From: Leptospirales bacterium
GTDB taxonomy: Bacteria > Spirochaetota > Leptospiria > Turneriellales > JAOUFE01
Length of the DNA stretch: 64,000 bases
Direction of reading: 5' to 3'
NCBI GenBank assembly: GCA_040326155.1
Contig: JBEQLE010000010.1
Location: 9,454-73,453 of the forward strand
A model generated the notes under the pieces. It ran no database searches. It saw only the letters and a list, made by a program, of their open reading frames with translations, and had not been told where the DNA came from. Positions 1-43,236 of this stretch are shown piece by piece; within the stretch, counting starts at the first letter, position 1, and each line of letters starts with the position of its first letter. The position numbers and the translations under genes were made by a program.

Positions 1-397
1 TATGAATATTAATATCTTTATGGATTATCTTTTTTTCATGTATGCTTTCTATTCCGTCGGTTATTGATATTGCCAGTGATAAAAACTTTTTAATGGATAG
101 GTCTTCTTTCGCTAATAAATTCCCTAGAGAGTCTCCGCCAACTGACTCCATTACGATGACAGGTTTACCATCGTATTCAATCAATTTAATTGGTTTAATT
201 ACGTTTGGCGCATCAATAGTATCCAGAATTTTAAATTCTGTTTTAATATTCGCAATTTGATCTGGTGACGGATATTCACCGGCCAGACTTTTTAGAATGA
301 TTTCTACATTATCAGATTCTCGTCGACCACTGTAGATAATCGTTCTTTTATTCTGGTGCAGTATTCCATCTAAATTGTACCCTGATACTTTAATCAT
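1..397 (-). CDS. Ser/Thr protein kinase, N-terminal part, running off the window edge; probably a multidomain kinase-ATPase-sensor protein
   Basis: Not in the ORF track. Manual translation from ATG at 397 with RBS AAGGAA: MIKVSGYNLDGILHQNKRTIIYSGRRESDNVEIILKSLAGEYPSPDQIANIKTEFKIL...PVIVMESVGGDSL...IESIHEKKIIHKDINIH. Shows the subdomain II Lys, the alphaC Glu and the start of the HKD catalytic loop. Confidence 0.85.
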   Translation of the reverse strand, partial: MIKVSGYNLDGILHQNKRTIIYSGRRESDNVEIILKSLAGEYPSPDQIANIKTEFKILDTIDAPNVIKPIKLIEYDGKPVIVMESVGGDSLGNLLAKEDLSIKKFLSLAISITDGIESIHEKKIIHKDINIH

Positions 398-523
398 AAT
401 TTCCTTTGTAGATTATTATACAATTAAACTACAATTCCCTATATGATGTTCGATAAGTCAATAATTTAAAACATTCTATAGTCATGCGATAATTTTTAAA
501 TAAGTTTTTTTGTAATAAAAATC

Positions 524-551
524 TTGACTCGTACTTTCAGTGTTATAGGGT
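524..551 (+). promoter_or_regulatory. Putative sigma70-type promoter of precursor 1
   Basis: TTGACT-16 nt-TAGGGT upstream of RBS GGAGG; equivalent motif at 1185-1212. Confidence 0.5.
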
Positions 552-583
552 AGCATTACTCAAGTATGAGATGGAGGTAAATT

Positions 584-853
584 ATGGATTTACAACATGA
601 GAAAAATAGAGTTTTAACTCATTTAATTCTGGACAAGGGATTTCGGGACAGCTTGAAAAACAGTACGAGTGACGGCGTAAAAGACGTTATAAATGGCGCC
701 AATGTCGATCCCCCTTTGAAGGCCAGTGACCTTGATGACGGCTTTTTAACAAAATTGAAAACAGCCGTAGATACCAAGGATTTGGGAAGCCAACCAATTG
801 ATAGTATCGAATCTTTAAAAGGTGGAGTAGAACCTGCTCCTGCTTCCTGGTAA
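584..853 (+). CDS. Putative RiPP precursor peptide 1 (C-terminal PAPASW)
   Basis: 89 aa, RBS GGAGG, paralogous to 1247..1534, leader motif NRVLTHLILDKGFRDSL, upstream of three B12-radical SAM genes. Confidence 0.8.
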   Translation: MDLQHEKNRVLTHLILDKGFRDSLKNSTSDGVKDVINGANVDPPLKASDLDDGFLTKLKTAVDTKDLGSQPIDSIESLKGGVEPAPASW

Positions 854-887
854 TTTCACCAGAATTTTAAAGACTTTTGATGGTTAT

Positions 888-909
888 CGACCTGGCTTAG
901 TCCAGGTCG
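888..909 (+). terminator. Stem-loop downstream of precursor 1
   Basis: CGACCTGG-CTTAGT-CCAGGTCG perfect 8-bp stem without a U-tract; may be a stabilising or processing hairpin. Confidence 0.5.
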
Positions 910-928
910 CTATATTAGATGTCGGCGA

Positions 929-1069
929 GAATTCTATGATTTTATAGGGTTAATTGCCTTTGGTCATCAATAGTACCCAGAATTTCAAATTCTCTTCTTC
1001 CGCTGTAAACAGCGTTCATTTATTTTGTTGCAAAATTCCAGTTAAACTGCACCCTGATACATTAACCAT
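929..1069 (-). pseudogene. Degenerate duplicate of the 5' end of the Ser/Thr kinase gene
   Basis: Translates MVNVSGCSLTGILQQNK* versus MIKVSGYNLDGILHQNKR in the intact copy; then a frameshift and internal deletion before similarity resumes (GAATTTGAAATTCTGGGTACTATTGATG versus GAATTTAAAATTCTGGATACTATTGATG). Confidence 0.8.
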
Positions 1070-1184
1070 AATTACACTTGCAGATTTACTCTACTACTAA
1101 ACTACAATTGTCCCATGATGTTTAATGGGTTAATTATTAAACATCCGATATATTGATTTTAAAATGATTTTTTTAATAAAAATG

Positions 1185-1212
1185 TTGACCACCACTGTAG
1201 GTGATATACGGT
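1185..1212 (+). promoter_or_regulatory. Putative sigma70-type promoter of precursor 2
   Basis: TTGACC-16 nt-TACGGT, positionally equivalent to 524-551. Confidence 0.5.
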
Positions 1213-1246
1213 AGTATTAATAAAATTAAAAGATTGGAGGGAAATA

Positions 1247-1534
1247 ATGGAAACAAATGATCTACAAGGTTCACAAAACAGAATTTTAACTCACATGGTG
1301 CTAGATAAGGCTTTCTATGAAAGTTTGAAAGGCAAGACGATTGTGGAAATGAGAAACGTTGTAAATGACGCTCAGATCGATCCCAATTTACAGGCCGCCC
1401 AACTTGGTGACGATTTCTTTACAAGATTAGGTACAGCCGTCAATGATAATGGGGATTTGGAAACTAAACCAATTCAGGACATCTTAATCTTAAAAACTGA
1501 GGTGATGGGGCAGCCTGCACCAGCTTCCTGGTAA
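1247..1534 (+). CDS. Putative RiPP precursor peptide 2 (C-terminal PAPASW)
   Basis: 95 aa, RBS GGAGG, leader motif NRILTHMVLDKAFYESL, same last six residues as precursor 1. Confidence 0.8.
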   Translation: METNDLQGSQNRILTHMVLDKAFYESLKGKTIVEMRNVVNDAQIDPNLQAAQLGDDFFTRLGTAVNDNGDLETKPIQDILILKTEVMGQPAPASW

Positions 1535-1568
1535 TTTCACTAGAATTTTAAAGACTTTTGAAATTAGT

Positions 1569-1584
1569 CCTGGTTAAGTCCAGG
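1569..1584 (+). terminator. Stem-loop downstream of precursor 2 (paralog of 888-909)
   Basis: CCTGG-TTAAGT-CCAGG. Confidence 0.4.
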
Positions 1585-1659
1585 TCATAAAATCCGAGAA
1601 CAAAGCAATTATATGCTTCATGCATTATTTTGGCTTTGTCTGGACAAATCACAAGATAT

Positions 1660-1690
1660 AGGGCATCATCATAGCGGGTGATGCCTTTTC
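1660..1690 (+). terminator. Terminator/attenuator-like hairpin before the first radical SAM gene
   Basis: AGGGCATCATC-ATAGCG-GGTGATGCCTT stem with G-U pairs, running into a short T tract. Confidence 0.5.
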
Positions 1691-1706
1691 AACAGGGTAG
1701 TAGAAT

Positions 1707-3569
1707 ATGAAAACTGTACTTATAGCAACTCACCAGGTTTCTTTTGATCTTCCGGTATCGTTATATTGTAGCATGGGTGTTCTGACCCTGGCTACTGCTC
1801 TAAAAAAGCGTAACCTGCCATGCGAAGTTCTTGATTTATTTGAACATAATGATTTACATGAAAGCAATTATGATGAAGCTATAGATGCAGTTGTTGAAAA
1901 AATTCTTTTATCGAAACCGGACGTTATAGGCTTTTCAACGATGAGCGATAATTTAATCATCGCTCTGGAGCTGGCAAAACGGATAAAGCAAGCTCGTCCC
2001 GCAGTTCATACTATTTTGGGCGGCCCGGGAAGCGCCTTTTGCGCACAAGACATCCTTTTAAACTTTCCCCATACCGACCTGGTCATCCGAGGAGAGGCGG
2101 ACGATGTTTTCCCCGAATATATCGAGTCTCTGAATCAAGGGCAGACCAATAACGATTTACGCGGATTGGTATTTCGCAACGAACAAAAAATAATCGATAA
2201 CGGATGGCCGGACCCGATAAAAGATATGGACTCTCTTCCGATATCGGATTATAATTTAATTAATGGATTAGGTATAAAACCTGGTGATCACAGGTATGGC
2301 GGTTTCGGTGTTGTTACGATCGAAATTGGCCGCGGTTGCCCCTATTCCTGTTCTTTTTGTTCTACTTCCACCTATTTTAATCGGGAATTCAGGGTAAAAT
2401 CTACGGACCGCATAATCGAAGAGATGTTATTGATTGAAAAAAAACTGGGGCCAGTCCGGATACTATTCAATCATGATACTTTTACAGTAGATCGAGAGTA
2501 TGTATTAGAACTATGCGATAAAATTATAAAAAATATCCCCAACCCGGACTGGTTATGCTTTTCCAGACTGGATACGCTTGATAAAGAGATGTATACAAAA
2601 ATGGGAGAAGCCGGTTGTACCGATATCTTTGTAGGACTTGAAAGCGCTACAAAGAAAATGCAAAAGACGCTCAATAAAAAACTGGATGTCAATGAATTTG
2701 ATATGTTACTGGACATTGCCAAGAATACGAAAATTGGAATTGTCCTTGCATTTATTGTCGGTTTTCCCGAAGAAGAAAAACAAGACATTAAAGAAATGCT
2801 CTCGTTTTTACTCAAAGTAAAATATTTAACTCGGGACCAATCCACCATTATCTTTGCCGCATTAACCCCTATGATCGGGACTCCTATATATAAAACATGG
2901 AAAAACAAATTAGCGTATGATAAGTATGGTAGCAGAGGCACCACGGATATACCCTTTAAATGGACTTCCTTTAGAGAGACGATTCAGGCATATCCTGAAA
3001 TTTTTTCTGTATTTTTTCATTTGGACACCGGTGGCGCTAAAAGATTGAATGATGTAAAATATCAGTCCATAGTCGCAACACTGGATATAATATTAAATGC
3101 ATCAATTTTAATAGCTTATGAATGGTTAGAGAAAGGTGTTGCCGAGGCTTTGGTTCAACATATCGATGAAATTAATTTTCCTGAACCGACACGGGCGGGA
3201 TTCTTCGACTCTCCGGCTTTGGCGGAATCGATTCGAAAGGTAATTTACACAGCTATGCAGAATGAACCGTTAGCGCAGGCAATGTTTGACGCTGTGGCTA
3301 AATATGAGATAGCCAAATACGAAGTGCAGTTAATAAAAAACAGCAGCCATTCTATAGTTATTGAGGTTATTGTCGATCCGATTCCTTTGGCCGAGCAAAT
3401 TGAAAATCGCATGGGAATGAAAAAAATTGCTGAAAATTTAACTGTGAACAATCAACCAATGCATTATATGGTAATTCGTGATGAAGAGAATCAAAAGATT
3501 AAAGCTACGAAAGTTTCTTCTGACATGGTCAAAATTCTTGACTCAGATGCAAAGGCAGTGGAGACTTAA
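1707..3569 (+). CDS. Cobalamin-dependent radical SAM protein 1 (putative RiPP maturase)
   Basis: N-terminal B12-binding domain (KPDVIGFS, ILGGPG, IRGEAD), GRGCPYSCSFC CxxxCxxC motif, GLES, FIVGFPEE, long C-terminal extension. Confidence 0.92.
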   Translation: MKTVLIATHQVSFDLPVSLYCSMGVLTLATALKKRNLPCEVLDLFEHNDLHESNYDEAIDAVVEKILLSKPDVIGFSTMSDNLIIALELAKRIKQARPAVHTILGGPGSAFCAQDILLNFPHTDLVIRGEADDVFPEYIESLNQGQTNNDLRGLVFRNEQKIIDNGWPDPIKDMDSLPISDYNLINGLGIKPGDHRYGGFGVVTIEIGRGCPYSCSFCSTSTYFNREFRVKSTDRIIEEMLLIEKKLGPVRILFNHDTFTVDREYVLELCDKIIKNIPNPDWLCFSRLDTLDKEMYTKMGEAGCTDIFVGLESATKKMQKTLNKKLDVNEFDMLLDIAKNTKIGIVLAFIVGFPEEEKQDIKEMLSFLLKVKYLTRDQSTIIFAALTPMIGTPIYKTWKNKLAYDKYGSRGTTDIPFKWTSFRETIQAYPEIFSVFFHLDTGGAKRLNDVKYQSIVATLDIILNASILIAYEWLEKGVAEALVQHIDEINFPEPTRAGFFDSPALAESIRKVIYTAMQNEPLAQAMFDAVAKYEIAKYEVQLIKNSSHSIVIEVIVDPIPLAEQIENRMGMKKIAENLTVNNQPMHYMVIRDEENQKIKATKVSSDMVKILDSDAKAVET

Positions 3570-3587
3570 AAGTCTCGGTCTCTAAAT

Positions 3588-5429
3588 ATGAAAGTTACCC
3601 TGGTTGCGACGCATCAGATAACGAAAACGCATCCAACTCCGCTCTATAGCGCATTGGGAGTGCTTGCACTCGCTGCGGCAGTAAAACAGCGGCAATATGA
3701 ATGTGAAGTTATTGATCTGGTTCGCTATAATAAGGTGGCGGAACATTTGTTTGAACCGATGGCAGATGAAATTGCTGAAAAACTTTTAGAAACAAAACCC
3801 GATATTATTGGGTTTTCCACCATTACGGATAATTTAATTATTGCTCTTGAACTTGCTAAAAGAGTAAAAAAAATGTCACCGGGTATATGCATCATAATGG
3901 GTGGGCCGGGAGTTTCCTATTGTTCTCAAGATGTATTAGAGAACTTTCCCGCTGTGAACTATATAATACGCGGGGAAGCGGATTATGCCTTTCCGGATTT
4001 TCTTTCAGCCTATGAAGCTAAGGACGAGAATCCCCAGATTAAAGGTCTCGTTTACCACAATGGCGATACCATGGTCGATTTGGGATGGCCAGACCCGGTT
4101 GAAGATCTGGATCAACTGCCTATTCCGGCATATGAATTTTGCACAGACATCGAATTTGAAACTTCATGGTATGACCATCGATATGGCTTTCTTATTGAAG
4201 CCGGTAGAGGCTGTCCGTACAATTGCAGTTTTTGTTCCTCTTCGTTTTATTTTAAACGGAAGTACAGAGTAAAATCGATTGAAAGATTAGTTAAGGAAAT
4301 TCATTATTTAAGAGGAAAGATTAAAAATAAAAGAGCTCGGTTCATTCATGATTTACTGACATTTAAACAAGATTATATGGAGAAGTTGTGCGAAGCTCTG
4401 ACTTTGGAGTTTCCAGATCTCAAATGGGGCTGCGATTCTCGCCTTGATACGATTGACCCTCCGTTAATAGAAAAAATGGTTAAATCGGGGTGTGACTTTA
4501 TATTTCTTGGCATTGAAGCTGCAACACCCAGAATGCAAAAAAACATCGGAAAAAGGCTCGATTTGAGTCGTATTGATACTGTATTGGAAAGTTTTAAAAA
4601 ATGGAAGATTAAATTTATTTTTTCATTCGTAGTGGGGTTGCCTGAAGAGGATGAGTCGGATATCAGGGCGATCTTTAAGTTGGCATTTAAAACAAGAGCT
4701 GCATGTGGAAATAATTGTACCGTACAACTGCATCCTTTAATACCCGAACTGGGCTCCAGTCTGTTTCCTGAAGATTTAAATGATATCGTATACGATGTAA
4801 ATCATAGAATGGTGGAAAATGCGCTGCCATTTCACTGGACCGAACTTCGAAAAATCGTACAAAAACACCCAGGTATATTTCCGAGTTTTTACAGACTTAA
4901 AAAAACGTTAGGTAATTATTCCTCACCTGAAACTGACCCGTCAAAATTTGCCCACTTTACGCTGATTCTTCAAGAAGGAATGATAAATTCTCTGCTTTTT
5001 GCTTATCGCGTGCTGGGGGACGAACAACTGGCAAAAGTAATTTTTGAGTGTATGGATGAATTCACTTTTGCAGATATGGATACAAGAGAAGAAGCGGAAT
5101 TTAACGACATATTTACTTTGATACGAACAAGAACCGCCAATTTGATTGGAGAAAATGAGGAAAACAAAAGACTCGTCGAAGTATTTAAATCTCTGGCAAC
5201 ATTTGAAATGGCAGTTTATAAAATCAGGCAAAAAGAATCCTCCGAATATATTGAACAAATTGATGTTTCCTATTCCGAAGAGGAAATGCTGTTTTTAGCC
5301 TCAAATCCAGATGCTCATGAAGATGTATCTCCCAGACAGAGGCGCTTAATGATACTTTGGGACAAAGGTGAAAGTAACATTAAGTGTGTGGAAGTGTCTC
5401 TAGACATGCAAAATTTAGCAAACATTTAA
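3588..5429 (+). CDS. Cobalamin-dependent radical SAM protein 2 (putative RiPP maturase)
   Basis: KPDIIGFS, IMGGPG, IRGEAD, GRGCPYNCSFC; full-length paralog of its neighbours. Confidence 0.92.
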   Translation: MKVTLVATHQITKTHPTPLYSALGVLALAAAVKQRQYECEVIDLVRYNKVAEHLFEPMADEIAEKLLETKPDIIGFSTITDNLIIALELAKRVKKMSPGICIIMGGPGVSYCSQDVLENFPAVNYIIRGEADYAFPDFLSAYEAKDENPQIKGLVYHNGDTMVDLGWPDPVEDLDQLPIPAYEFCTDIEFETSWYDHRYGFLIEAGRGCPYNCSFCSSSFYFKRKYRVKSIERLVKEIHYLRGKIKNKRARFIHDLLTFKQDYMEKLCEALTLEFPDLKWGCDSRLDTIDPPLIEKMVKSGCDFIFLGIEAATPRMQKNIGKRLDLSRIDTVLESFKKWKIKFIFSFVVGLPEEDESDIRAIFKLAFKTRAACGNNCTVQLHPLIPELGSSLFPEDLNDIVYDVNHRMVENALPFHWTELRKIVQKHPGIFPSFYRLKKTLGNYSSPETDPSKFAHFTLILQEGMINSLLFAYRVLGDEQLAKVIFECMDEFTFADMDTREEAEFNDIFTLIRTRTANLIGENEENKRLVEVFKSLATFEMAVYKIRQKESSEYIEQIDVSYSEEEMLFLASNPDAHEDVSPRQRRLMILWDKGESNIKCVEVSLDMQNLANI

Positions 5430-5433
5430 CAAA

Positions 5434-7275
5434 ATGAAAACCCTGCTTATTGCCACTCACCAGATCTCTTTTTCGCAGCCGCAATCTTTATACAATTGTC
5501 TTGGTGTGTTAACTCTGGCCGCTTGCTTGAAAAAGCGCAACCTGAATTGTGAAGTTTTAGACCTGTTTGAATATAACGACCTTTATAATCGAGATTGCAG
5601 TGAAGTATTGGATTCCATTGCTCAAAAAATTATAGCCGCAAAGCCCGACATTCTTGGTTTTTCGGCGATGATCAATAATCTACCCATTGCCCTGGAGTTG
5701 GCCGCTCGTGTTAAGAAAATTCGACCCGATGTGTTTACTGTTTTTGGAGGACCGGGCGCAGCTTTTTGTGCCAAAGAAGTTCTGTTAAATTTTAAACAAG
5801 TGGATGTCATTTTTCGAGGCGAGGCCGATGTGGTCTTTCCCGGTTATATTGAAAATTTAGCAAATAATAATAACAGCAACAACTCGGTTCCAGGGTTGAT
5901 TTTTCGAAACGGAGCAGAAATCGTAGATAACGGCTGGCCCGAACCGATTGCAAATCTGGATGAGCTTCCCGTTCCAGATTATCATTTTGACAGTGAATCT
6001 TATAAGAGTCAGACAACAAAGCAATTTGGCGATTACAATGGTGTCTCCATAGAAGTCGGCCGCGGTTGTCCATATACGTGTACGTTTTGTTCCACTTCCG
6101 AGTATTTTAAACGAAAGTATCGGTTAAAGACCGTTGATCGAATTATTGAAGAAATATTATTAATACATAGAAGACTTGGTCGGGCCAGAATTATTTTTAA
6201 CCACGATCTTCTCACTTTAAAGCGAAAGTTTGTTTTCGAATTATGCGAACAAATTGAAGCGCGCGTTCCAGGGTTAATCTGGAAGTGCCACGCCAGGTTG
6301 GATACTCTGGACTCAGAAATGCTTACCAAAATGAACGAAGCCGGCTGTAATGAAATTTTTCTGGGTCTTGAAAATGCCACAGAGAAAATGCAAAAAATTG
6401 TGAAAAAGAAGCTGGACCTGGATAAATTTGACGTGCCGCTGGAGAGCGCCGCCTCCTTAGATATGAAGTTCAGTCTCTCTTTTATTGTAGGTTTCCCGGA
6501 AGAAGAGGAGGAAGACATTCGCGCTATCTTTGCCTACTCTTTAAAAGCAAAACAGATGTGCCGCGAAAAAGTCCAAATTAAAATTCATACACTGGCTCCG
6601 CTGGTTGGCTCGGCTTTGTATGAACAATGGAAAGATAGACTGGTGTACGACGCCTATGGAAGTATTTCGACTACCGATATTCCGCATTCCTGGAGCTCTT
6701 TAAGAAACACCATTCAAGGTCACCCCGAGATATTTTCCATATATTTTCATTTAGACATTGGACAATCGCGAAGAATAAATTCGTCCAAATATGGCTATTT
6801 AGGTTTAATTATTGAGAAATTGATGATTTATAGTATGTCGTTGGCCCATGAATGGCTCGGCGATAGCATTGCCGAAATTTTTGTAAATAATATTGATGAA
6901 ATTATTTTACCGCAAGCCGCATCGGCAAAAGACTCAGAATATCATGCTCTGGCGCAGTCTGTCAGAAAACTACTCACAAAGGCTTTGCAATACGATTCGG
7001 TAGCACAGAGCATGTACGATGCTGTGGCCCAATATGAAATTGCCGTTCTCGATATAATGAGCAATAGAACGAATGGCTACATGAAAGTTATTGAAGTCTA
7101 TTATGACCCGGAGGAATTAATAGAACGAATCCATAAATGGCAGACTATGAAACAAGTTGCTGAAAATCTAAACAAAAGAGATGAACCGCTTTGCTTAATG
7201 ATTTTATGGGACGATAAGGAAAATAAACTGAAACGAACGGAAATTTCACCGGATTTCGCTCACCTAGTCAGTTAA
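5434..7275 (+). CDS. Cobalamin-dependent radical SAM protein 3 (putative RiPP maturase)
   Basis: KPDILGFS, VFGGPG, FRGEAD, GRGCPYTCTFC; visibly closest to protein 1. Confidence 0.92.
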   Translation: MKTLLIATHQISFSQPQSLYNCLGVLTLAACLKKRNLNCEVLDLFEYNDLYNRDCSEVLDSIAQKIIAAKPDILGFSAMINNLPIALELAARVKKIRPDVFTVFGGPGAAFCAKEVLLNFKQVDVIFRGEADVVFPGYIENLANNNNSNNSVPGLIFRNGAEIVDNGWPEPIANLDELPVPDYHFDSESYKSQTTKQFGDYNGVSIEVGRGCPYTCTFCSTSEYFKRKYRLKTVDRIIEEILLIHRRLGRARIIFNHDLLTLKRKFVFELCEQIEARVPGLIWKCHARLDTLDSEMLTKMNEAGCNEIFLGLENATEKMQKIVKKKLDLDKFDVPLESAASLDMKFSLSFIVGFPEEEEEDIRAIFAYSLKAKQMCREKVQIKIHTLAPLVGSALYEQWKDRLVYDAYGSISTTDIPHSWSSLRNTIQGHPEIFSIYFHLDIGQSRRINSSKYGYLGLIIEKLMIYSMSLAHEWLGDSIAEIFVNNIDEIILPQAASAKDSEYHALAQSVRKLLTKALQYDSVAQSMYDAVAQYEIAVLDIMSNRTNGYMKVIEVYYDPEELIERIHKWQTMKQVAENLNKRDEPLCLMILWDDKENKLKRTEISPDFAHLVS

Positions 7276-7326
7276 TACACTTTCTGCCTGAAAGGATTGT
7301 TTACGGTATGTTCTAAGATTTAAGTA

Positions 7327-8250
7327 TTGCCTGTGAAGCAGTATCAATTATTTAAAGATAAAGCCATATTGGCTGTAAAAGGTTTTATGATGGGTACCGC
7401 CGACGTTGTACCCGGAGTTTCCGGTGGAACCATCGCTTTAATTAGTGGAATTTATGAACACCTCATTACCGCCCTTAGTTCCGTAAAAATTTCCCATGCA
7501 AAAGATCTATTTTTCCTGATTTTTACACGGCCCGGTTCCGAGAAAAGAGTCGCCGCAATTCATTCCTTAACAAGAATACCCTGGAATTTTCTACTTCCAC
7601 TTATGTTCGGTATCCTATCGGGCGCCATGGTCTTTTTCCGTATTATGCCCTACCTGTTAGAAACTCATCCTTTGTATACTTACTCCTTTTTCTTCGGCCT
7701 CATTTTATTTTCACTTACGATACCGTATAAACATATGCATAAACATCTTTATGATTTTGCAATTTTAATCTTTTTTGCCTTTGTCACATTTATGGTAACC
7801 GTTTTTATTGGCGAGCAGGAAGGCACTACAAATCTATTTTACATATTTTTTTCCGGCGCTCTGGCCATTTGCGCCATGATTCTGCCCGGTATTTCCGGCG
7901 CTTACATACTTTTAATATTAGGGGAATACCATATTATAACAGACTCCCTTGAATTCCCGTTTGATCTGCCCATTGTACTTACTTTTATTGCCGGCATGGT
8001 GATCGGTTTGCTCTCTTTTGTTCGTTTGTTAAAGTCTCTATTGTATCATCATCACTCTCGAACTATGGCCGCCTTGACCGGAGCGATGGTCGGTAGCATG
8101 TATAAACTTCTACCTTTTCCTCATATAAAAGGTTCGATAGGTACCTCCGATTACGCTATATTTGCTGCTATGGCCCTGTTGGGAATGTTATTTATTTTTG
8201 CCATGGAGCGGGCTGCTCTCGCAGTGAAAGATCCGGAACCGCCGATTTAA
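7327..8250 (+). CDS. DUF368 family membrane protein (putative undecaprenyl phosphate translocase)
   Basis: GFMMGTADVVPGVSGGTIA and AMILPGISGAY repeats, many TM helices. Confidence 0.9.
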   Translation: MPVKQYQLFKDKAILAVKGFMMGTADVVPGVSGGTIALISGIYEHLITALSSVKISHAKDLFFLIFTRPGSEKRVAAIHSLTRIPWNFLLPLMFGILSGAMVFFRIMPYLLETHPLYTYSFFFGLILFSLTIPYKHMHKHLYDFAILIFFAFVTFMVTVFIGEQEGTTNLFYIFFSGALAICAMILPGISGAYILLILGEYHIITDSLEFPFDLPIVLTFIAGMVIGLLSFVRLLKSLLYHHHSRTMAALTGAMVGSMYKLLPFPHIKGSIGTSDYAIFAAMALLGMLFIFAMERAALAVKDPEPPI

Positions 8251-8296: not shown

Positions 8297-9856
8297 ATGT
8301 CTTTTGATCTTTCATCTTATCAAGAAAAATACTCTGAACTGTTGCGTGACTACGATCATATTCAAGTGAACCTTGTCGATTATCCAAAAACTCCTTATAA
8401 TTTGGCGATTGCCACTGCGAGAACCTGCTATAGTTCGAAGGGTTTAATTTATCCTGACGACCTTGAAAAAAATGATAAATCAAGAGAGCTTCGCGACCGA
8501 ATTGCGCGTTCTACTCTCGAAGCCGGCCATGTTACAACTCGCCAGCACGCCCATTTTGTTTTCGCTATTTCCGGGGTTTCCCGAAACGTCATCTGGCAGT
8601 TTTTACACTCTCATCCCTATTATAATTCGGAACAGGTTTCGCAAAGGTATGTTCCCATAAAAGGCGGTGACTGGTTTTCTCTTCCCCCGTCTCTAAGAAC
8701 TGCCGAGGGAAACGCCCACATGGACTTTTGCATAAAGAGTTACCGCGAGCTTATTGAGGCTCTAACCGGCCCCGTCTCTGAGGTCTATTTTGATATATTT
8801 CGCAGCCGTAAGGTTAACCCTGAAAAGTACGCTAAAGATATCGAGAAAAAGTCGATGGAAGTGGCCCGGTATATTATGCCGCTTTCCACGACCGCTTATT
8901 TATACCACACCATAAGCGCGCTTACATTTTACCGCTACGCGAAAATGTTGGAGCGAAACCTGTTACCCGAAGCTACGGTACTGATTTTAAAAATGGCCGC
9001 AGAGCTTGAAAAGGTTGATCCTCTTTTGGTTTCTGAAATTCCGGAATCTCTGGAAAAAATTTCGAAAGAGTATGATCCTGCCATTGCCTCACGAAAAAAC
9101 CGTGAATTCGATGAACGTCTGAACAAAGAAAACCTTCGCTCGATGTTAATTTCTCACACCGGTGATATTGCAAACAAAATTCCCGAGATAGCAAATCTTA
9201 TGCGTGGTGGTTTTTCAGGCAATGCGGTCACATTACCCGAACTTCTGGACGCAGAAAAAAACAGTTATCTGTCGGATCCTCTATACCCGGTAACGCTCGA
9301 TGAAGATTCCCGTGTGTTGAATCATATGCATTTTACATTCATGAAAAAACTTTCCCACACCGCCGACTCCCAGGAACAACGCCACCGTACCCTTCCCGGT
9401 TCTCGTCCGGACCTTGCGGCCCAGGTCTCTCTTGAGAACGATTATATTATACCCGAAATTATAAAAGGCAACCCTGTTTTGTTATCTTTATACAATAATA
9501 TTATAGAAAAAAGTTTCGATGTTATTCGAGCAACTCACAAAAAAGGCATTCCACTTCACGATGTAACAAGCCTGCTGCCAAATGCTTTTCCCGTTCGTTT
9601 TTACGAGTCCGGTGACTACCTGAACTTTTTTCACAAGTGGAAGTCGAGACTCTGTTACAACGCCCAGGAAGAGATTTTTTATTCGACGCTCGATGAACTG
9701 AACCAGGTCGAAGCCGCCGTACCCGAACTTCGAGGTTTTATCGGCCCGCCTTGCGCCCTGCGTAAAACCACCAAACCGCGCTGCCCCGAAGGCGACCGCT
9801 ACTGCGGCGTCAAAGTCTGGAAACTTTCCCCGTCTGAATATAGCCGGGTTATATAG
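8297..9856 (+). CDS. thyX: FAD-dependent thymidylate synthase with tandem ThyX domains
   Basis: GHVTTRQHAHFVFAISGVSR, SEQVSQRY, EVARYIMP; second domain QEQRHRT, LLPNA, RLCYNAQEEI. Confidence 0.85.
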   Translation: MSFDLSSYQEKYSELLRDYDHIQVNLVDYPKTPYNLAIATARTCYSSKGLIYPDDLEKNDKSRELRDRIARSTLEAGHVTTRQHAHFVFAISGVSRNVIWQFLHSHPYYNSEQVSQRYVPIKGGDWFSLPPSLRTAEGNAHMDFCIKSYRELIEALTGPVSEVYFDIFRSRKVNPEKYAKDIEKKSMEVARYIMPLSTTAYLYHTISALTFYRYAKMLERNLLPEATVLILKMAAELEKVDPLLVSEIPESLEKISKEYDPAIASRKNREFDERLNKENLRSMLISHTGDIANKIPEIANLMRGGFSGNAVTLPELLDAEKNSYLSDPLYPVTLDEDSRVLNHMHFTFMKKLSHTADSQEQRHRTLPGSRPDLAAQVSLENDYIIPEIIKGNPVLLSLYNNIIEKSFDVIRATHKKGIPLHDVTSLLPNAFPVRFYESGDYLNFFHKWKSRLCYNAQEEIFYSTLDELNQVEAAVPELRGFIGPPCALRKTTKPRCPEGDRYCGVKVWKLSPSEYSRVI

Positions 9857-17327: not shown

Positions 17328-18806
17328 TTATAGATTTATCGATTTATTCCATTCTGCCATTGCAACCGTGATCGTACTTTCTAACCAATCGTGAAAACGT
17401 TTCAATGTATTATCCTGTGTTTCTGCATAATTAAACTGGAATAAGTCAGGTGAACCAGGCTGTACATTGACCAGTTCGGTTGCAGTGGGTTCGTCCTTTG
17501 GAATACGCTGAGATGTGAAGGAAGTAGCCGCCATAATACCATTATTACTTTGGCCATAGCCATGAAAACTAATGATAAATTCAAACCTTTTCTCTGTTTG
17601 AATTATTAGTCTGATATAAGATTTATAATTGTCAAAATTGGCAAAGTAATCAAATTTATTTGCTATTTGAATAATTTCATAATGATAATAGTGGCTTTTC
17701 AAATCATCGTTTAAAGCTGAGAATGTGTTTGCAAAGAATTTTTTTCCTGGTAATGATATATCCTGTAATTGTTTATCGATCACATTACCTATCTTATCCA
17801 GTTCACCAACCGCATTGTTGTGTAACGCCTTTGCTATAATATAAACATCATTTAATTTGTCACGTTGTGCTTTATATTTATTTTTTAAAGCTGTAATAGC
17901 AGTACTGATAATTTGCTCAGAATGTTTTGATTGTTCTACTTGTTTTTGAATTTCCATAGCAGAAAGAATAGCATCTCTTTGCCTTTTTACAAAAAGTTTT
18001 ATCAGGAATTCTAATTTACCTTCGTCTGCGGACTCAAGAGCCTCAATATACTCCCGTCTTTCCTGGTCCCGAATGACCAATGGGAAAAGACCCTTTCTTA
18101 AAAATACTAGAGTTGCTAATGCACGAGCTACACGACCGTTCCCATCTTGAAATGGATGAATTTGTGTGAAGCGGTGGTGCAACCATGCTGATAGAATTTC
18201 TGGAGGCACTTCATCTTCAAGCTCTGCATACCATTTTACCAAATTTTCCATTTCATCACGAACCAATTCGGGTGGGCAATAAAAATGCATTTCTCCATCT
18301 GGTCTTCTAGGATTATTTTCTTGTTTTTTATACTCACCTTTTAATAATTTAACCGGAACTTTTTTTCCGTCACTAGTTAGAGCAATTGTTGTCTCCTGAT
18401 TTTTAGTAAATTCTGCATGAATAGATCGTATAAAATGTTCATTTAATGGCTGTTCTCCTTTAACGTATGAGAAGAGTCCCTCAACAATATTATATTGATC
18501 ATCAATTAGAATTTTAACATTTTCAGCCTCATCTTTGAGCAAACCTCCTTTATGGGAAATTAGTGATGAATCAATACCTTGCTCTATTAATAATTCAGTA
18601 ACTCCTCGATCCCAGGTATATAAGCGTTCAATGATGCCGGTTTCAATGGCCCATTCTCGTTGTAATTTTTTAATAAATTCCTGATATTCGTTTGATTGCT
18701 CAAGTTCACCTTTCTTTTCATTCCAGATATCACATAGAGCTTGAAGTTCAGTAGACTTTAAATTAAATACATTTTTAGCTAATTTACTTACATTGTTATA
18801 TTTCAT
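17328..18806 (-). CDS. Fic family protein
   Basis: Canonical HPFQDGNGRVAR motif; N-terminal AIETGIIER; start uncertain. Confidence 0.9.
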   Translation of the reverse strand: MKYNNVSKLAKNVFNLKSTELQALCDIWNEKKGELEQSNEYQEFIKKLQREWAIETGIIERLYTWDRGVTELLIEQGIDSSLISHKGGLLKDEAENVKILIDDQYNIVEGLFSYVKGEQPLNEHFIRSIHAEFTKNQETTIALTSDGKKVPVKLLKGEYKKQENNPRRPDGEMHFYCPPELVRDEMENLVKWYAELEDEVPPEILSAWLHHRFTQIHPFQDGNGRVARALATLVFLRKGLFPLVIRDQERREYIEALESADEGKLEFLIKLFVKRQRDAILSAMEIQKQVEQSKHSEQIISTAITALKNKYKAQRDKLNDVYIIAKALHNNAVGELDKIGNVIDKQLQDISLPGKKFFANTFSALNDDLKSHYYHYEIIQIANKFDYFANFDNYKSYIRLIIQTEKRFEFIISFHGYGQSNNGIMAATSFTSQRIPKDEPTATELVNVQPGSPDLFQFNYAETQDNTLKRFHDWLESTITVAMAEWNKSINL

Positions 18807-19205
18807 AAAGTACAACTACATTGGGTTAGGTTAACCTATATACATATAATTCGCCGAACAGTAAATTTTTACCTTATCGCACTTAACTCTGCCTCCACCC
18901 AACAATCGCAAAAAATAATTGAATTTTCTTGTGAACTAAAACCGATATCAAACTACTTTCCGATGGGGTTGCCCCTTCTTATAAACCAAAAATCACCAAA
19001 CTTTATGGTGAGGGTTAACTTAGAAAACATTTTCATTCGGGACGTTTGCAGATGGTATTTTTAATAGAAAATTATCATGAGATGATAACCAATTAGATCC
19101 ATATTCAATTGTATAATTATGCCAGGGGGTTTATCTGTGTTGGAAGTTAGTTGACACTTGGTTGTAACATTACTTACTAGTCAAAATCAACAATATGGAG
19201 TGACT

Positions 19206-39828: not shown

Positions 39829-42800
39829 TTATAAAGCGCCAGGGGTTGCAGGTGCGGCTTTCCAGCCGGTTAAACTCTTGTTTAAAGAAAAACCGTTCGG
39901 GACATCTGATATATTTATTCCCAGTTTTTGTATTTCAGCATCATTAAAGCCGGAAATAGGATTTAACGAGTTCCATGACATAAATTGATGCGCCCCAACA
40001 TTGGCGTAAAGCCTGAGCATCCCCCCTTTCATCAACGAACTGGTAATATGCCCATCTTTATTTGTATAATAAACGATCTCCCTCCATTGGTCTTTCGTTT
40101 TAAGAAGTAAAATTCCATCGCTCCATGTAAGAGGGGAAAATCTCGAAACAAAAGAGGTTGATCCATAATATAAATTTGAGTAAACTGATAATTCAGCAGC
40201 CGATTCCGGGTCCATATAGATTAAAAGGATTTGCCCGGCAACAACTGCAACATCGGGAAATACAAAAATCGTATATGCACCATATCCCTGCATATATTGA
40301 ATAGAAATTCCATTCAGTGTACCATCTTGACTGACTGTAATTTCAAGCCATTGCGGACCCGAGGTGGGTTTTAACATGATCTCGTTAAATTCTACTTTAG
40401 CGGTTTCTATAGAAGAAAACCCGTTAAATGTAACGCCCCCGGTCGGCAGGGGGAAAGCAGAACCGTTGCAAAGTCGCTCCGTATGCGAAAACGTTAAACC
40501 CGCGTCAGATGAAACAAAAAGTCCCGCCGAAGAGGCTATCCATAAAGAGTTTAATCGAGCAAAAAGCTTTTCGGGGAAAACTTTTTTTCCGTTATAAACA
40601 CCATTATAAATAGGCAGGGGAACCTCAGTAGCCAACCCGGCTTCTATAATTGCAATATTGTCTTGTGAGGCGACATATACCCGAGCAGGGGTCGTAGCAA
40701 TTCTAAACCTGGCCTGGTCCGGGTTGGAAACCCCTGAAAATTTGTAAAAATCTGCTCCGTTATTGTCTGAAAAAAATAGTCCTGCCCCGGTAGCGGCAAT
40801 AACCTTTGTGTCCGTAATTGCGACATCCCACACGGGTCCAGTCACGCCGGCAGCAACGTTAAAAGAAACTCCATCATCGTTCGAGTAGTACATGGACTGG
40901 CCCGTTCCGGCGATAACCGTGTTGTTTTTGGCAGCCAGAGAAAACATAGGTTCGGAAATTACTTTTACAAACCCCGAACCGGAGTTGCGGTACAATCCAA
41001 AGTTCCCGCTGGTATATCGACTGGTCGTTGTAAAAGCGAGGTGGCGAACTTTGAAAGGTGAGGCTACTTCTTTTACAAAATTTCCAGGCGAGGTCGAAGT
41101 GTAAATTCCATCGGAAGTTGCCAGGTAGACGCTCCCCGCATGGAATGAAATATCGTGTACACGAATCGGCCAGGGGGCGAGCGTTACGCGCGTAAAGTTG
41201 GCTCCGGAGTCGCTGGAGTAATATAAAGCTGCATCGCCTGCCATGTAAATTTCATTTAATAAAGATGTTATGGCAAAAGTGCGACCTTGTTTCGCGGTAT
41301 TTGCAGAAATGGAATACAAGTTCTGGGAATTATTTGCTCCTGAAAGCTGAAAAACAAGTTCATTGGAAAAGTCACCGGAATAAACCTGGTCTATTGCGGG
41401 CGTTCCAGAACCCGAAACAGTGTAATCACTTTTATCGACACAAGCAGAAACATCGGCAGAAAACTGAACCGTAATATTTCCACTCTGTTTTTTCGTCACC
41501 GTGCCAAATTCAAGCGGTGTGGCAAAAAGCTCGTCCATACCTGGCGTCGCATAAATAGGTAAAAGGGAACTGCATAAAGCTGCGCAAGGAGTAGTCGAAG
41601 CTCGCCAGTGTCCGTTTTTTCCCATTTTCACCTGTGATCGTATTGCCGCACCGTTTGTTTCCAGGGAGTAATAAACGGGGGCCATTTTGCCGGTCGAATC
41701 GATGAGTTTCATGGTGGGGTCATACAAAGAGAGTCGTGGGTCGCCAGGAAACGGCGTAAAATCTTTAGACGAGGGAATTTTAGCGCTTTGTACAAAAGAG
41801 CGCCCCGGTCCAAAAGTTTCATTCAGAATATCGGCGTCGCGAGTATAAATTATAAAAAGCTCGCCCGGGGCCAGGTTAAACGGTCCTCCATAACTCGAAG
41901 TGTAGAGGTCGGGTATTGTGTAAGTATTTCGAAACCCCTGTGACCTCCAGGCGATGGTCCAGTTTGTAACATCGATATTTTTGCCAGAAAGGTTTTTAAG
42001 CTCTATAAATTTCTGGCCAGAATCGTTACTGCCGTTGACCTCACCATACCATCCAACCTCGGTAATTTGCACGTCGCCAGATTTAGCGGCAGAGCCGAAT
42101 GTTGTCGAAAAAACATATTTCATCGTCGTGGATTTTTGCCATGCCAGTTTCCATTGATTCAATAAACTTCGTGAGACATTCGAGTTGTGTATAAGTAACA
42201 GATTTTCATCATTATTATGAACGGCATTTTGTGACCAGTTGAAAGAGCCGGTAATGGCAACCCCCGAATCGGTATCGGCGTCAATGAGCATTGTTTTGCA
42301 ATGCATTTTCGAACCAGAGCGAAATGAATTACTTGAGACGACATTCGTACCCGAATCGGGAACATAGTTTTCGTTTCCATCAATTCGTATTCTCATATAA
42401 CGTGGCATCAGAACCGAAGCTCGGTAAAGTCGAGAGGCCTCCTGGGAAATTCCCGAAACAAAATTAGAGTCGTGTATTCCATAAACTTTTACACCCCGGC
42501 GGGAGGCTTCTATTAAAGCCGACGAAATTTCATCATGTGAAAAAGCGAATACCATATAGCGGATAGAATTTTCAGCTTTGCCAATAGCCTCGACTACTTT
42601 TTGCACAGTTTGCGCAGAATCGGTTGGCGAAAAATAGAGCGAAACTTTCGACCCCGAAACCATCGTCGTTTTATCTATAAAAGGGGACGATTTCAGGCGT
42701 GCAAAAAACCCGGCCCGCATTCGAAAAAACTCTTCTTCATACCAGCTCGCCAGGGCCGTACTCTTTATGATAATAAAATTATTGTCGTTATAATAAAAGC

Positions 42801-43236
42801 CCGACTGCGTAAAATTTCCAGTGCCGGTCAAAACCGTTTTAGAATCGATCACAATAAATTTGTTGTGTTGGATGCCGGTAGTGTTTCCGACGACCAGATC
42901 AACATCGTCCAGCAACAAAGCCTGGTAACCATTCGAGTCGCTTTCGTCCAGATCGCCCACCAGTTTAACTTCAACACCAGATTGCCTCGCCCTGAGCAAA
43001 GCCTCACGAACCCTCTCCGAGTCAAAATTATACATTGTCATAAAAATCGTTTTCTCGGCCTTCCCGATAAAAAGGACAATACGATCTTCAGCGTCACTTT
43101 GTTCCCCAGGGCGCGAATAAAAAACATCGAAAGAACCGGGCTGCGCAGGCGCTTGAACCTGGCACGAGAGGAAAACAGGGAACGTCAGGAACAACAAAAA
43201 CACCAGACACAAACCAAATAATATATTTTTAACCAT
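39829..43236 (-). CDS. Lipoprotein with two phospholipase D/Nuc domains, lamin-tail-like domains and Asp-box repeats
   Basis: Lipobox-like FLSC; HKD motifs HNKFIVID and HCKTMLID with GxxN; ITEVGW..FIELKN; repeated YS.D.G..F. Confidence 0.8.
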   Translation of the reverse strand: MVKNILFGLCLVFLLFLTFPVFLSCQVQAPAQPGSFDVFYSRPGEQSDAEDRIVLFIGKAEKTIFMTMYNFDSERVREALLRARQSGVEVKLVGDLDESDSNGYQALLLDDVDLVVGNTTGIQHNKFIVIDSKTVLTGTGNFTQSGFYYNDNNFIIIKSTALASWYEEEFFRMRAGFFARLKSSPFIDKTTMVSGSKVSLYFSPTDSAQTVQKVVEAIGKAENSIRYMVFAFSHDEISSALIEASRRGVKVYGIHDSNFVSGISQEASRLYRASVLMPRYMRIRIDGNENYVPDSGTNVVSSNSFRSGSKMHCKTMLIDADTDSGVAITGSFNWSQNAVHNNDENLLLIHNSNVSRSLLNQWKLAWQKSTTMKYVFSTTFGSAAKSGDVQITEVGWYGEVNGSNDSGQKFIELKNLSGKNIDVTNWTIAWRSQGFRNTYTIPDLYTSSYGGPFNLAPGELFIIYTRDADILNETFGPGRSFVQSAKIPSSKDFTPFPGDPRLSLYDPTMKLIDSTGKMAPVYYSLETNGAAIRSQVKMGKNGHWRASTTPCAALCSSLLPIYATPGMDELFATPLEFGTVTKKQSGNITVQFSADVSACVDKSDYTVSGSGTPAIDQVYSGDFSNELVFQLSGANNSQNLYSISANTAKQGRTFAITSLLNEIYMAGDAALYYSSDSGANFTRVTLAPWPIRVHDISFHAGSVYLATSDGIYTSTSPGNFVKEVASPFKVRHLAFTTTSRYTSGNFGLYRNSGSGFVKVISEPMFSLAAKNNTVIAGTGQSMYYSNDDGVSFNVAAGVTGPVWDVAITDTKVIAATGAGLFFSDNNGADFYKFSGVSNPDQARFRIATTPARVYVASQDNIAIIEAGLATEVPLPIYNGVYNGKKVFPEKLFARLNSLWIASSAGLFVSSDAGLTFSHTERLCNGSAFPLPTGGVTFNGFSSIETAKVEFNEIMLKPTSGPQWLEITVSQDGTLNGISIQYMQGYGAYTIFVFPDVAVVAGQILLIYMDPESAAELSVYSNLYYGSTSFVSRFSPLTWSDGILLLKTKDQWREIVYYTNKDGHITSSLMKGGMLRLYANVGAHQFMSWNSLNPISGFNDAEIQKLGINISDVPNGFSLNKSLTGWKAAPATPGAL

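Follow-up and report, generated by a model that had tools for sequence, protein, structure and literature searches.

Two paralogous peptides ending in PAPASW and three class B radical SAM enzymes form a candidate RiPP-like operon in a Leptospirales bacterium

We analysed a 64,000-nucleotide stretch of DNA from a Leptospirales bacterium (contig JBEQLE010000010.1 of assembly GCA_040326155.1, positions 9,454 to 73,453), referred to here as the window, which carries near its start a candidate operon for peptides that are ribosomally synthesised and modified after translation (RiPPs). The putative operon is formed by five genes on the forward strand. Precursor gene 1 (positions 584–853) encodes a peptide of 89 residues with the C-terminus GGVEPAPASW, and precursor gene 2 (1247–1534) encodes a peptide of 95 residues that ends in VMGQPAPASW. 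The PAPASW codons occupy positions 833–850 and 1514–1531, respectively. The stop codon of precursor gene 2 is separated by 172 nt from the first of three enzyme genes, which encode proteins of 620 (enzyme 1, 1707–3569), 613 (enzyme 2, 3588–5429), and 613 residues (enzyme 3, 5434–7275) and are spaced by 18 and 4 nt. The locus thus has the content described in an earlier sequence-only reading, which reported two short paralogous open reading frames (ORFs) with an invariant PAPASW end and three tightly packed paralogs of about 615 residues on the same strand. When the whole assembly (171 contigs, 4.26 Mb) was scanned in six frames, PAPASW occurred in the two precursor ORFs and nowhere else. The arrangement of two peptides and three enzymes is genuine and not a chance pattern.

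The two precursors are paralogs, with 46 of 91 aligned residues identical (51%, E = 6e-29), and alignment of the DNA of both units shows a tandem duplication that includes the flanks. The three indels between the genes have lengths of 9, 3, and 6 nt, all multiples of three, as expected of coding sequence. The comparison of the paralogs gives a dS of 0.83 and a dN of 0.37. The last six codons differ by two synonymous and no non-synonymous changes (proportion of synonymous differences, pS, 0.40; none at 13 non-synonymous sites), whereas the remainder of the gene has a pS of 0.51 and a proportion of non-synonymous differences, pN, of 0.31. The chance of a tail with zero non-synonymous changes is about 0.008, according to rough arithmetic from the pN and pS figures. 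Because the tails differ synonymously and not non-synonymously, the comparison indicates that PAPASW is kept by selection at the amino-acid level and not by recent gene conversion.

The AlphaFold2 (AF2) model of precursor 2, calculated from a 13-row alignment, contains helices within residues 3–87, followed by an unstructured tail of residues 88–95. The mean predicted local distance difference test score (pLDDT) of the model is 83.6, with values of 80–93 over residues 11–90 and 60 in the last block. The model matches no fold in the PDB (Foldseek, best E of 5.4), and an Atlas structure search with the precursor gave a lead to a Nif11 cluster with a TM score of 0.50, which is below the bar of that tool. 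Neither precursor belongs to a Pfam or NCBIfam family, and no Pfam match was found even at E-values up to 10. From the model, we infer that the precursor is composed of a helical recognition ("leader") domain and an eight-residue floppy tail that ends in PAPASW-COOH.

Each precursor gene is preceded by its own upstream block. The block of precursor gene 1 (480–583, forward strand) is AT-rich and contains TTGACT, the conserved sequence GTGtTATAgGGTAG, and, 8 nt ahead of the ATG, a GGAGG ribosome-binding site; the block of precursor gene 2 (1140–1246, forward strand) is a duplicate of it with TTGACC and GGAGGG. Since neither block is listed in the output of the consensus promoter scan, their putative role as promoters was assigned by eye. 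The 3′ block of precursor gene 1 (851–909, forward strand) includes the hairpin CGACCTGG-CTTAGT-CCAGGTCG at 888–909, which lacks a T tract, and that of precursor gene 2 (1532–1586, forward strand) includes the hairpin CCTGG-TTAAGT-CCAGG at about 1567–1586. The RNA fold of positions 835–925 has an energy of −28.4 kcal/mol and a z-score of −3.26, and the fold at the hairpin of precursor gene 2 is weaker (z-score of −1.54). The 31 nt that follow the stop codons of the two peptides differ in a single mismatch between the units, and this untranslated block, which precedes the GC hairpin without a T tract, is better conserved than the coding region. The consensus terminator scan did not call the hairpins terminator-like, and the 3′ block may be an element of RNA stability or processing. 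A search of window positions 1–8000 identified no Rfam family or riboswitch; its single row was a small nucleolar RNA with an E-value of 0.61.

The three enzymes share a B12-binding domain, a radical S-adenosylmethionine (SAM) domain, and a C-terminal domain, the first two of which correspond to residues 22–138 and 205–368 of enzyme 1. The B12-binding domains match PF02310 with 61.9, 67.3, and 63.9 bits in enzymes 1–3 (cut-off 32.1), and the Radical_SAM domains match PF04055 with 62.9–69.8 bits, above the curated cut-off. The motif GRGCPYxCxFC, which includes CxxxCxxC, is kept in all three enzymes; cysteines 211, 215, and 218 do not vary among the three paralogs or across 32 family members, and an alignment of 32 family members that includes the window enzymes has 44 further invariant columns. 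The radical SAM core of each enzyme is followed by about 190 residues that match no Pfam family but have a structural counterpart in the C-terminal domain of CysS. Enzymes 2 and 3 are 35% and 49% identical to enzyme 1, respectively, and 39% identical to each other, and enzyme 2 is the most divergent of the three.

The AF2 model of enzyme 3, based on a 32-row alignment, has a pLDDT of 91.3 and a predicted TM score of 0.90. Its top matches in the PDB are all class B, that is cobalamin-type, radical SAM enzymes (Foldseek E-values of 5e-20 to 1e-16). The closest structures are those of CysS (9n1d; Z-score of 28.9, 515 residues aligned over model residues 1–593, rmsd of 5.2), MgmA (9ccb; Z-score of 28.4, 379 residues, rmsd of 3.5), AprD4 (Z-score of 27.6, 424 residues, rmsd of 3.4), OxsB (Z-score of 27.5, 449 residues, rmsd of 3.8), TsrM (6wtf; Z-score of 26.2, 420 residues, rmsd of 3.3), and TokK (7kdx; Z-score of 23.0, 532 residues, rmsd of 6.4). 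Domain content and predicted fold agree in placing the three enzymes in class B, and thus bear out the domain organization and long C-terminal extension that were read from the sequence before. The same genome encodes CobS and CbiG, which makes a supply of cobalamin plausible.

The best NCBIfam match of enzymes 1–3 is ApyD (NF050148) with 277.3, 272.1, and 288.3 bits, respectively, far short of the cut-off of 750. ApyD is also the best family of six other members of the enzyme family that were scored. The second tier of matches is led by rSAM_ocin_1 (TIGR03975), the PoyB/PoyC type, with 139.6, 123.4, and 132.7 bits (cut-off 281.85, not reached), and includes BchE and HpnJ with similar scores. 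The nearest curated families are therefore those of RiPP maturases. The comparison set of the sequence-only reading included PoyB and PoyC, which correspond to the second-best family, but did not name ApyD, the closest characterised relative. ApyD is described as a radical SAM enzyme of aminopyruvatide biosynthesis that depends on B12, contains a RiPP recognition element (RRE), and produces (2S,3R)-beta-methyltyrosine from the penultimate tyrosine of a GYLYD C-terminus (PMC10635010).

We propose, with a probability of about 0.55, that the five genes constitute a self-contained RiPP-like operon in which the C-terminal tail of both precursors is the target of the three class B radical SAM enzymes. 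The precursor genes, each with an upstream block and ribosome-binding site of its own, would give a product of about 90 residues with a helical leader and a tail. The enzymes would bind to the helical leader and accommodate the tail in the active site, where a 5′-deoxyadenosyl radical generated from SAM by the [4Fe-4S] cluster would remove a hydrogen from an unactivated carbon, and methylcobalamin would donate a methyl group. By analogy with ApyD, C-methylation is the most likely chemistry, and the C-beta of the terminal tryptophan is the prime candidate site. Both are favoured because ApyD, the characterised enzyme closest to those of the window, methylates an aromatic residue next to a C-terminus, and because all the candidate precursors described below have a terminal aromatic residue as their one common feature. 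The three enzymes may act at different positions of the tail or in successive steps.

Alternatively, one or more of the enzymes may form a cross-link or ring of the tryptophan, for example to a proline or alanine carbon, or catalyse another radical rearrangement. Class B enzymes are diverse, the cyclase BchE and the dehydratase AprD4 are among the matches of the window enzymes, and no sequence feature that we examined separates methylases from other class B enzymes. A class B enzyme that cross-links two aromatic side chains is described from biphenomycin biosynthesis (PMC12257519), but PAPASW contains a single aromatic residue. Moreover, ApyD, a C-methyltransferase, scores 272–288 bits, compared with at most 140 for the next family, and the structural matches include the protein C-methylase MgmA and the methyltransferase TokK. 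CysS, the best full-length structural match, is also a methyltransferase. We therefore consider a chemistry other than methylation unlikely, while ranking it first among the alternatives to the proposed tail methylation; it is followed by an uncleaved modified protein, a scaffold peptide, and a non-peptide substrate.

The enzymes that would methylate the PAPASW tails are rare. The next-best relative of enzyme 3 in its own genome is 24% identical. In 60 related genomes, searched at an E-value of 1e-30 or better, the only other match was partial and 27% identical (2 of 61 genomes with matches, its own included), and of 400 further genomes sampled from the phylum and searched at 1e-60 or better none had a match (1 of 401, its own). 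A word-indexed search of 5.8 billion protein clusters returned 31 full-length relatives with E-values of 1.2e-132 or better, two of which are the window's own, whereas the match that follows them has an E-value of 2.3e-71 and covers the first two domains only. The clade thus comprises at least 29 other clusters at 90% identity, a minimum figure since the window's own enzyme 2 escaped the search, which hence misses members near 39% identity. Two of these clusters are named by their source as proteins of Thorarchaeota metagenome-assembled genomes (MAGs). The scan of a genome collection with a first set of patterns found no relative, and the second scan found none of the close family among the best 80 of 596 relatives, the top identity being 35%. 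Two close loci, L010 and L011, were among the best 80 matches listed in a metagenome scan, and a tblastn search of plasmids found distant relatives only, none exceeding 31% identity or covering more than 69% of the query.

In a quick maximum-likelihood tree of 32 members and three outgroups, enzyme 1 clusters with P0004 and P0007 (support of 100), enzyme 3 with P0003, P0005, and P0006, and enzyme 2 is a sister to P0029 (support of 100) on a deep branch separate from those of enzymes 1 and 3. P0003 and P0004 are both listed with a longest contig of 25,040 bases, and P0006 and P0007 with one of 105,390 bases. Because of these equal sizes, each pair is probably located on one contig, and the pair of enzymes 1 and 3 is probably conserved in two other organisms. 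The three paralogs are old and presumably specialised, and since they belong to separate, old branches, action at different positions or in successive steps is the most likely division of work between them.

The relatives of the window enzymes provide a comparison of the C-terminal ends. Longer relatives have 700–770 residues, and one of them, P0051, has a PqqD match at residues 650–691, whereas the C-terminal domains of the window enzymes have no PqqD match in Pfam at E-values up to 10. In a profile alignment, the window enzymes stop about 20 residues into the PqqD-like element, or RRE, of the longer relatives. The end of the enzyme 3 model (residues 550–612) is formed by a strand, two helices, two strands, and a helix. 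A complete RRE seems to be missing from the window enzymes. The predicted complex of enzyme 3 with precursor 2 has a score of 0.42 (runs of 0.54, 0.42, and 0.38), and the best of three controls has a score of 0.00. Of 157 solved complexes, 116 attain the mark for such predictions, as do 2 of 215 mismatched pairs; with a score of 0.60 or under, only 18 of the 157 solved complexes attain it, and both passing mismatches lie in that range. Agreement between runs is at least 36% of contacts, and the pLDDT of the partner is at least 67. The prediction gives weak support to the binding of precursor 2 by enzyme 3.

The close enzyme family has three readable loci: the window, L010, and L011. At all three, the organization expected of a RiPP locus was found, namely a small candidate precursor gene beside the modifying enzyme or enzymes. 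A small ORF on the same strand ends 47–172 nt before the enzyme gene, and it has a tryptophan at its C-terminus or at most seven residues from it. The L011 ORF, in front of the gene of enzyme P0025, encodes 87 residues ending in SADYYFTDW. The L010 ORF (943–1362), in front of the gene of a P0022-like enzyme, encodes up to 139 residues ending in GIIIDSWLIGIDK. The distances from these two ORFs to the enzyme genes are 47 and 87 nt. Profile and word searches seeded with these two ORFs yielded further precursor-like ORFs, so that 13 candidate precursors could be assigned to three groups. Group A is formed by the two window peptides with the C-terminus PAPASW, group B by two members ending in FTDW or FTDY, and group C by nine members, two of them named Thorarchaeota, that end in LGIKSRFKGIIIDSWLL followed by zero to three residues, or more in L010. 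A tryptophan (12 of 13) or tyrosine (1 of 13) is located within the last seven residues of each candidate and is preceded by a serine or aspartate.

Groups B and C are related (hhalign local E-value of 1.2e-5, probability of 81%). The L010 ORF together with P0124, P0125, and P0128–P0134 gives nine precursor-like proteins of 130–139 residues with a highly charged N-terminus and the near-invariant C-terminus LGIKSR(F/Y)K(G/S)I(I/V)(I/V)(D/E)SWL; two of them carry Thorarchaeota MAG names, and the set may represent a peptide-tailoring system of Asgard archaea. As the homology of group A to the other groups is unsupported, the new matches P0124–P0126 of the large profile search must stem from the query rows of L010 and L011. 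A seventh match of that search, P0127, a repetitive protein of 873 residues, looks spurious.

In the wider enzyme family, with 30–34% identity and mostly from soil MAGs, the small upstream ORFs fall into groups that are homologous across loci, the largest containing 14 ORFs from 14 of the 138 loci whose visible upstream DNA measures 500 nt or more. This distribution supports the idea that adjacent peptides are tailored by the whole superclade. The wider family (L012–L168) has longer, RRE-bearing enzymes, mostly from Acidobacteriota and soil MAGs. Its small ORFs (for example L012:3117–3341, L021:762–947, and L054:7551–7817) share a motif like I.V.IP..LGLT..Q...L.K.F.NELV and have hydrophobic ends such as IIIIIIF and VVVVVVVV, and look like a separate, larger candidate RiPP family.

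The recurrence of small same-strand ORFs at the close-family loci and in groups across the wider family argues against the possibility that these ORFs are not substrates but unrelated small proteins located upstream by chance, and that a lipid, a tetrapyrrole, or some other small molecule is what the enzymes modify. The modification of the peptide is itself inferred, and families of the hopanoid (HpnJ and HpnR), BchE, and lipid types occur among the weaker matches of the enzymes. However, these matches are far weaker than those to ApyD, the operon contains no lipid or tetrapyrrole genes, and the complex prediction passed its controls, if weakly. A non-peptide substrate is accordingly the least probable of the alternatives and, in our judgement, very unlikely.

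The DNA upstream of the operon contains two genes that may be connected with its function. The 5′ end of a divergent gene occupies window positions 2–397 on the reverse strand, and the gene runs off the window (L173:4574–9850). It encodes a protein of 1759 residues with Ser/Thr kinase, AAA_16, TPR, GAF, and SpoIIE phosphatase domains, which is at most a possible regulator of the cluster. Divergent TPR proteins are likewise encoded upstream in L010 and L011, but as relatives of the 1759-residue protein they were rejected, as there is no significant similarity (best E-value of 0.2). Located 5.7 kb upstream of the operon, also on the reverse strand, is the gene of a papain-family peptidase (Peptidase_C1, 471 residues, L173:2908–4320) that apparently has no signal peptide. 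Its search in five relatives identified no close ortholog, and the stretch with the kinase and peptidase genes lies outside the synteny shared with a genome of the same family. A second GAF-SpoIIE phosphatase of 592 residues (57776–59557, reverse strand) resembles the C-terminal half of the kinase protein in its domains.

The peptidase bears on the idea that the precursor is a scaffold, on which the three enzymes would build up the tryptophan or the last residues before these are cut off as a methylated, tryptophan-derived metabolite or cofactor. Mycofactocin, pyrroloquinoline quinone (PQQ), and the pearlins offer parallels for such a route. Pathways that employ carrier peptides are described (PMC9303977). 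A cytoplasmic peptidase in the same non-syntenic region could perform the release, and in one alignment the invariant serine of PAPASW is aligned with that of LGxKS in the other groups, which leaves only the tryptophan beyond it. This cross-group alignment, however, has no statistical support, and in group C two to six residues follow the tryptophan. Furthermore, the peptidase gene is on the opposite strand, behind the kinase gene, and L011 has no such peptidase. We regard the scaffold route as improbable. A more far-reaching version is speculative to a similar degree: the PAPASW peptides would act as carriers on which a multiply C-alkylated or cyclised tryptophan unit is built and then released, perhaps by the papain-type peptidase, under the control of the giant kinase-phosphatase protein next to the operon, with single-enzyme sister systems in Asgard archaea represented by the Thorarchaeota-named MAGs. 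If true, the peptide-templated biosynthesis of small molecules would gain a new class that is common to bacteria and archaea.

It is also conceivable that the helical protein of about 90 residues is itself the end product, modified in its tail and neither cleaved nor exported. The operon and L011 contain no protease or transporter, and the long "leader" is modelled as a confident helical fold. The class B enzymes Mmp10 and MgmA, which act on methyl-coenzyme M reductase, are parallels for the modification of a protein in place, and MgmA is the second-best structural match of enzyme 3. The body of the precursor nevertheless evolves fast and the tail is fixed, which is the pattern expected of a leader and a core and not of a protein with its function residing in the fold. 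The presence of two gene copies, each with its own upstream block, is typical of precursor genes. A modified, uncleaved protein is thus rather unlikely.

Several observations weigh against the proposed modification of the PAPASW tails by the three enzymes. The chemistry is derived wholly by analogy, and class B enzymes are also described to catalyse reactions other than methylation (PMC12257519). The operon and its 3′ flank have no protease or exporter. As the enzymes end where the RRE of the longer relatives begins, the recognition of the leader is left without an assigned element, and the complex prediction is weak and has no reported contacts. The homology of group A to group B, group C, or both combined is unsupported (hhalign E-values of 0.013–0.13, probability of at most 3.4%); a search of the genome's 44,450 ORFs with the combined profile of groups B and C did not retrieve either PAPASW peptide (best unrelated match with an E-value of 0.071), and a word search with precursor 2 returned the query itself as its one candidate. 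The precursor family across loci is therefore defined by position, size, and a terminal aromatic residue, and not by proven homology. The evidence from the close family comes from three loci, and the branch of enzymes 1 and 3 (17 members) and that of enzyme 2 and P0029 are seen only at the window. The conservation of the tail extends 31 nt into the 3′ untranslated region and may partly be an effect at the RNA level. The candidate RiPP suggested by the sequence-only reading is supported in part, by the nearest enzyme families, the constraint on the tail, and the recurrence of small ORFs, but not by homology of the precursors across loci. Likewise, the comparison of neighbourhoods that it called for identified small ORFs ending in or near a tryptophan at L010 and L011, but these could not be linked to the PAPASW peptides by homology.

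Downstream of the operon, a polyprenyl-phosphate transporter-like gene is followed by a long ThyX gene, an aminotransferase gene, and housekeeping genes. The transporter–ThyX pair is syntenic in a relative of the same family, and the synteny breaks directly upstream of the pair. The ThyX protein (8297–9856, forward strand) has two Thy1 stretches within an unusual length of 519 residues; it resembles a flavin-dependent thymidylate synthase in which two domains are fused, and is conserved with 55–58% identity in three genomes of the same family. Further genes of the window encode a Fic-domain protein of 494 residues (17328–18815, reverse strand) and a protein of 1134 residues with two PLD-like nuclease/phospholipase domains and a lamin-tail domain (39829–43236, reverse strand).

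Some of the most difficult reactions of peptide tailoring are performed by class B radical SAM enzymes, and for few of these enzymes is the substrate known. The cluster offers three such enzymes beside an obvious and very short candidate substrate. If the proposed function is correct, the locus would define a new precursor family together with an enzyme clade in which a complete RRE is apparently missing, and would extend B12-dependent peptide tailoring to a lineage for which we found no such description, and to the related single-enzyme loci with peptides that bear Thorarchaeota MAG names. To our knowledge, no B12-dependent modification of a peptide-bound tryptophan is known in this clade, and none was found in the open-access and bioRxiv literature; the cluster could provide the first.

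Family libraries, open-access papers, and bioRxiv contained no description of the window system or of a RiPP family with this peptide, in agreement with the novelty proposed for it from the sequence. According to the tests made, it is not an ApyD, proteusin, or bottromycin cluster. PoyB and PoyC are C-methyltransferases of proteusin-type RiPPs. Similarly to the window system, proteusin clusters combine class B enzymes that methylate unactivated carbons, which may be present as several paralogs, with a leader of about 80 residues. However, the window precursors match none of the NHLP and Nif11 models, whose leaders are typical of proteusins, and the candidate core has six to eight residues, whereas that of proteusins has tens. 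In bottromycin biosynthesis, three class B radical SAM methyltransferases act on one short peptide, and the putative operon resembles it in its three paralogous enzymes and short, proline-containing core. Besides the methyltransferases, bottromycin clusters have genes for YcaO enzymes, hydrolases, a P450, and an O-methyltransferase, as well as a precursor with a follower peptide, none of which is present at this locus. CysS, TokK, MgmA, and TsrM match the fold of enzyme 3 over all three domains with only 14–21% sequence identity. The substrates of CysS and TokK are small molecules or carrier-bound, TsrM uses free tryptophan, and MgmA modifies a large protein.

The clavusporins are described as RiPPs with multiple C-methylations for which a radical SAM enzyme that depends on B12 is a key maturase (PMC10849626). 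They share this type of maturase with biphenomycin, another recently described RiPP, and with the putative system of the window. In contrast to the window system, these pathways need DUF5825 or multinuclear non-heme iron-dependent oxidase (MNIO), arginase, hydroxylase, and protease partners, of which none is present here, and their precursor motifs are unrelated to the PAPASW peptides. The putative operon differs from the aminopyruvatide cluster in having no MNIO (ApyHI), P450, or ApyS nearby, in three paralogous enzymes instead of one ApyD, and in precursors that are unrelated and end in a tryptophan instead of an aspartate. In addition, ApyD contains an RRE, whereas the window enzymes stop where the PqqD-like element of their relatives starts. 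Nevertheless, ApyD has the same architecture of B12-binding and radical SAM domains, and its substrate is a ribosomal peptide with an aromatic residue next to the C-terminus.

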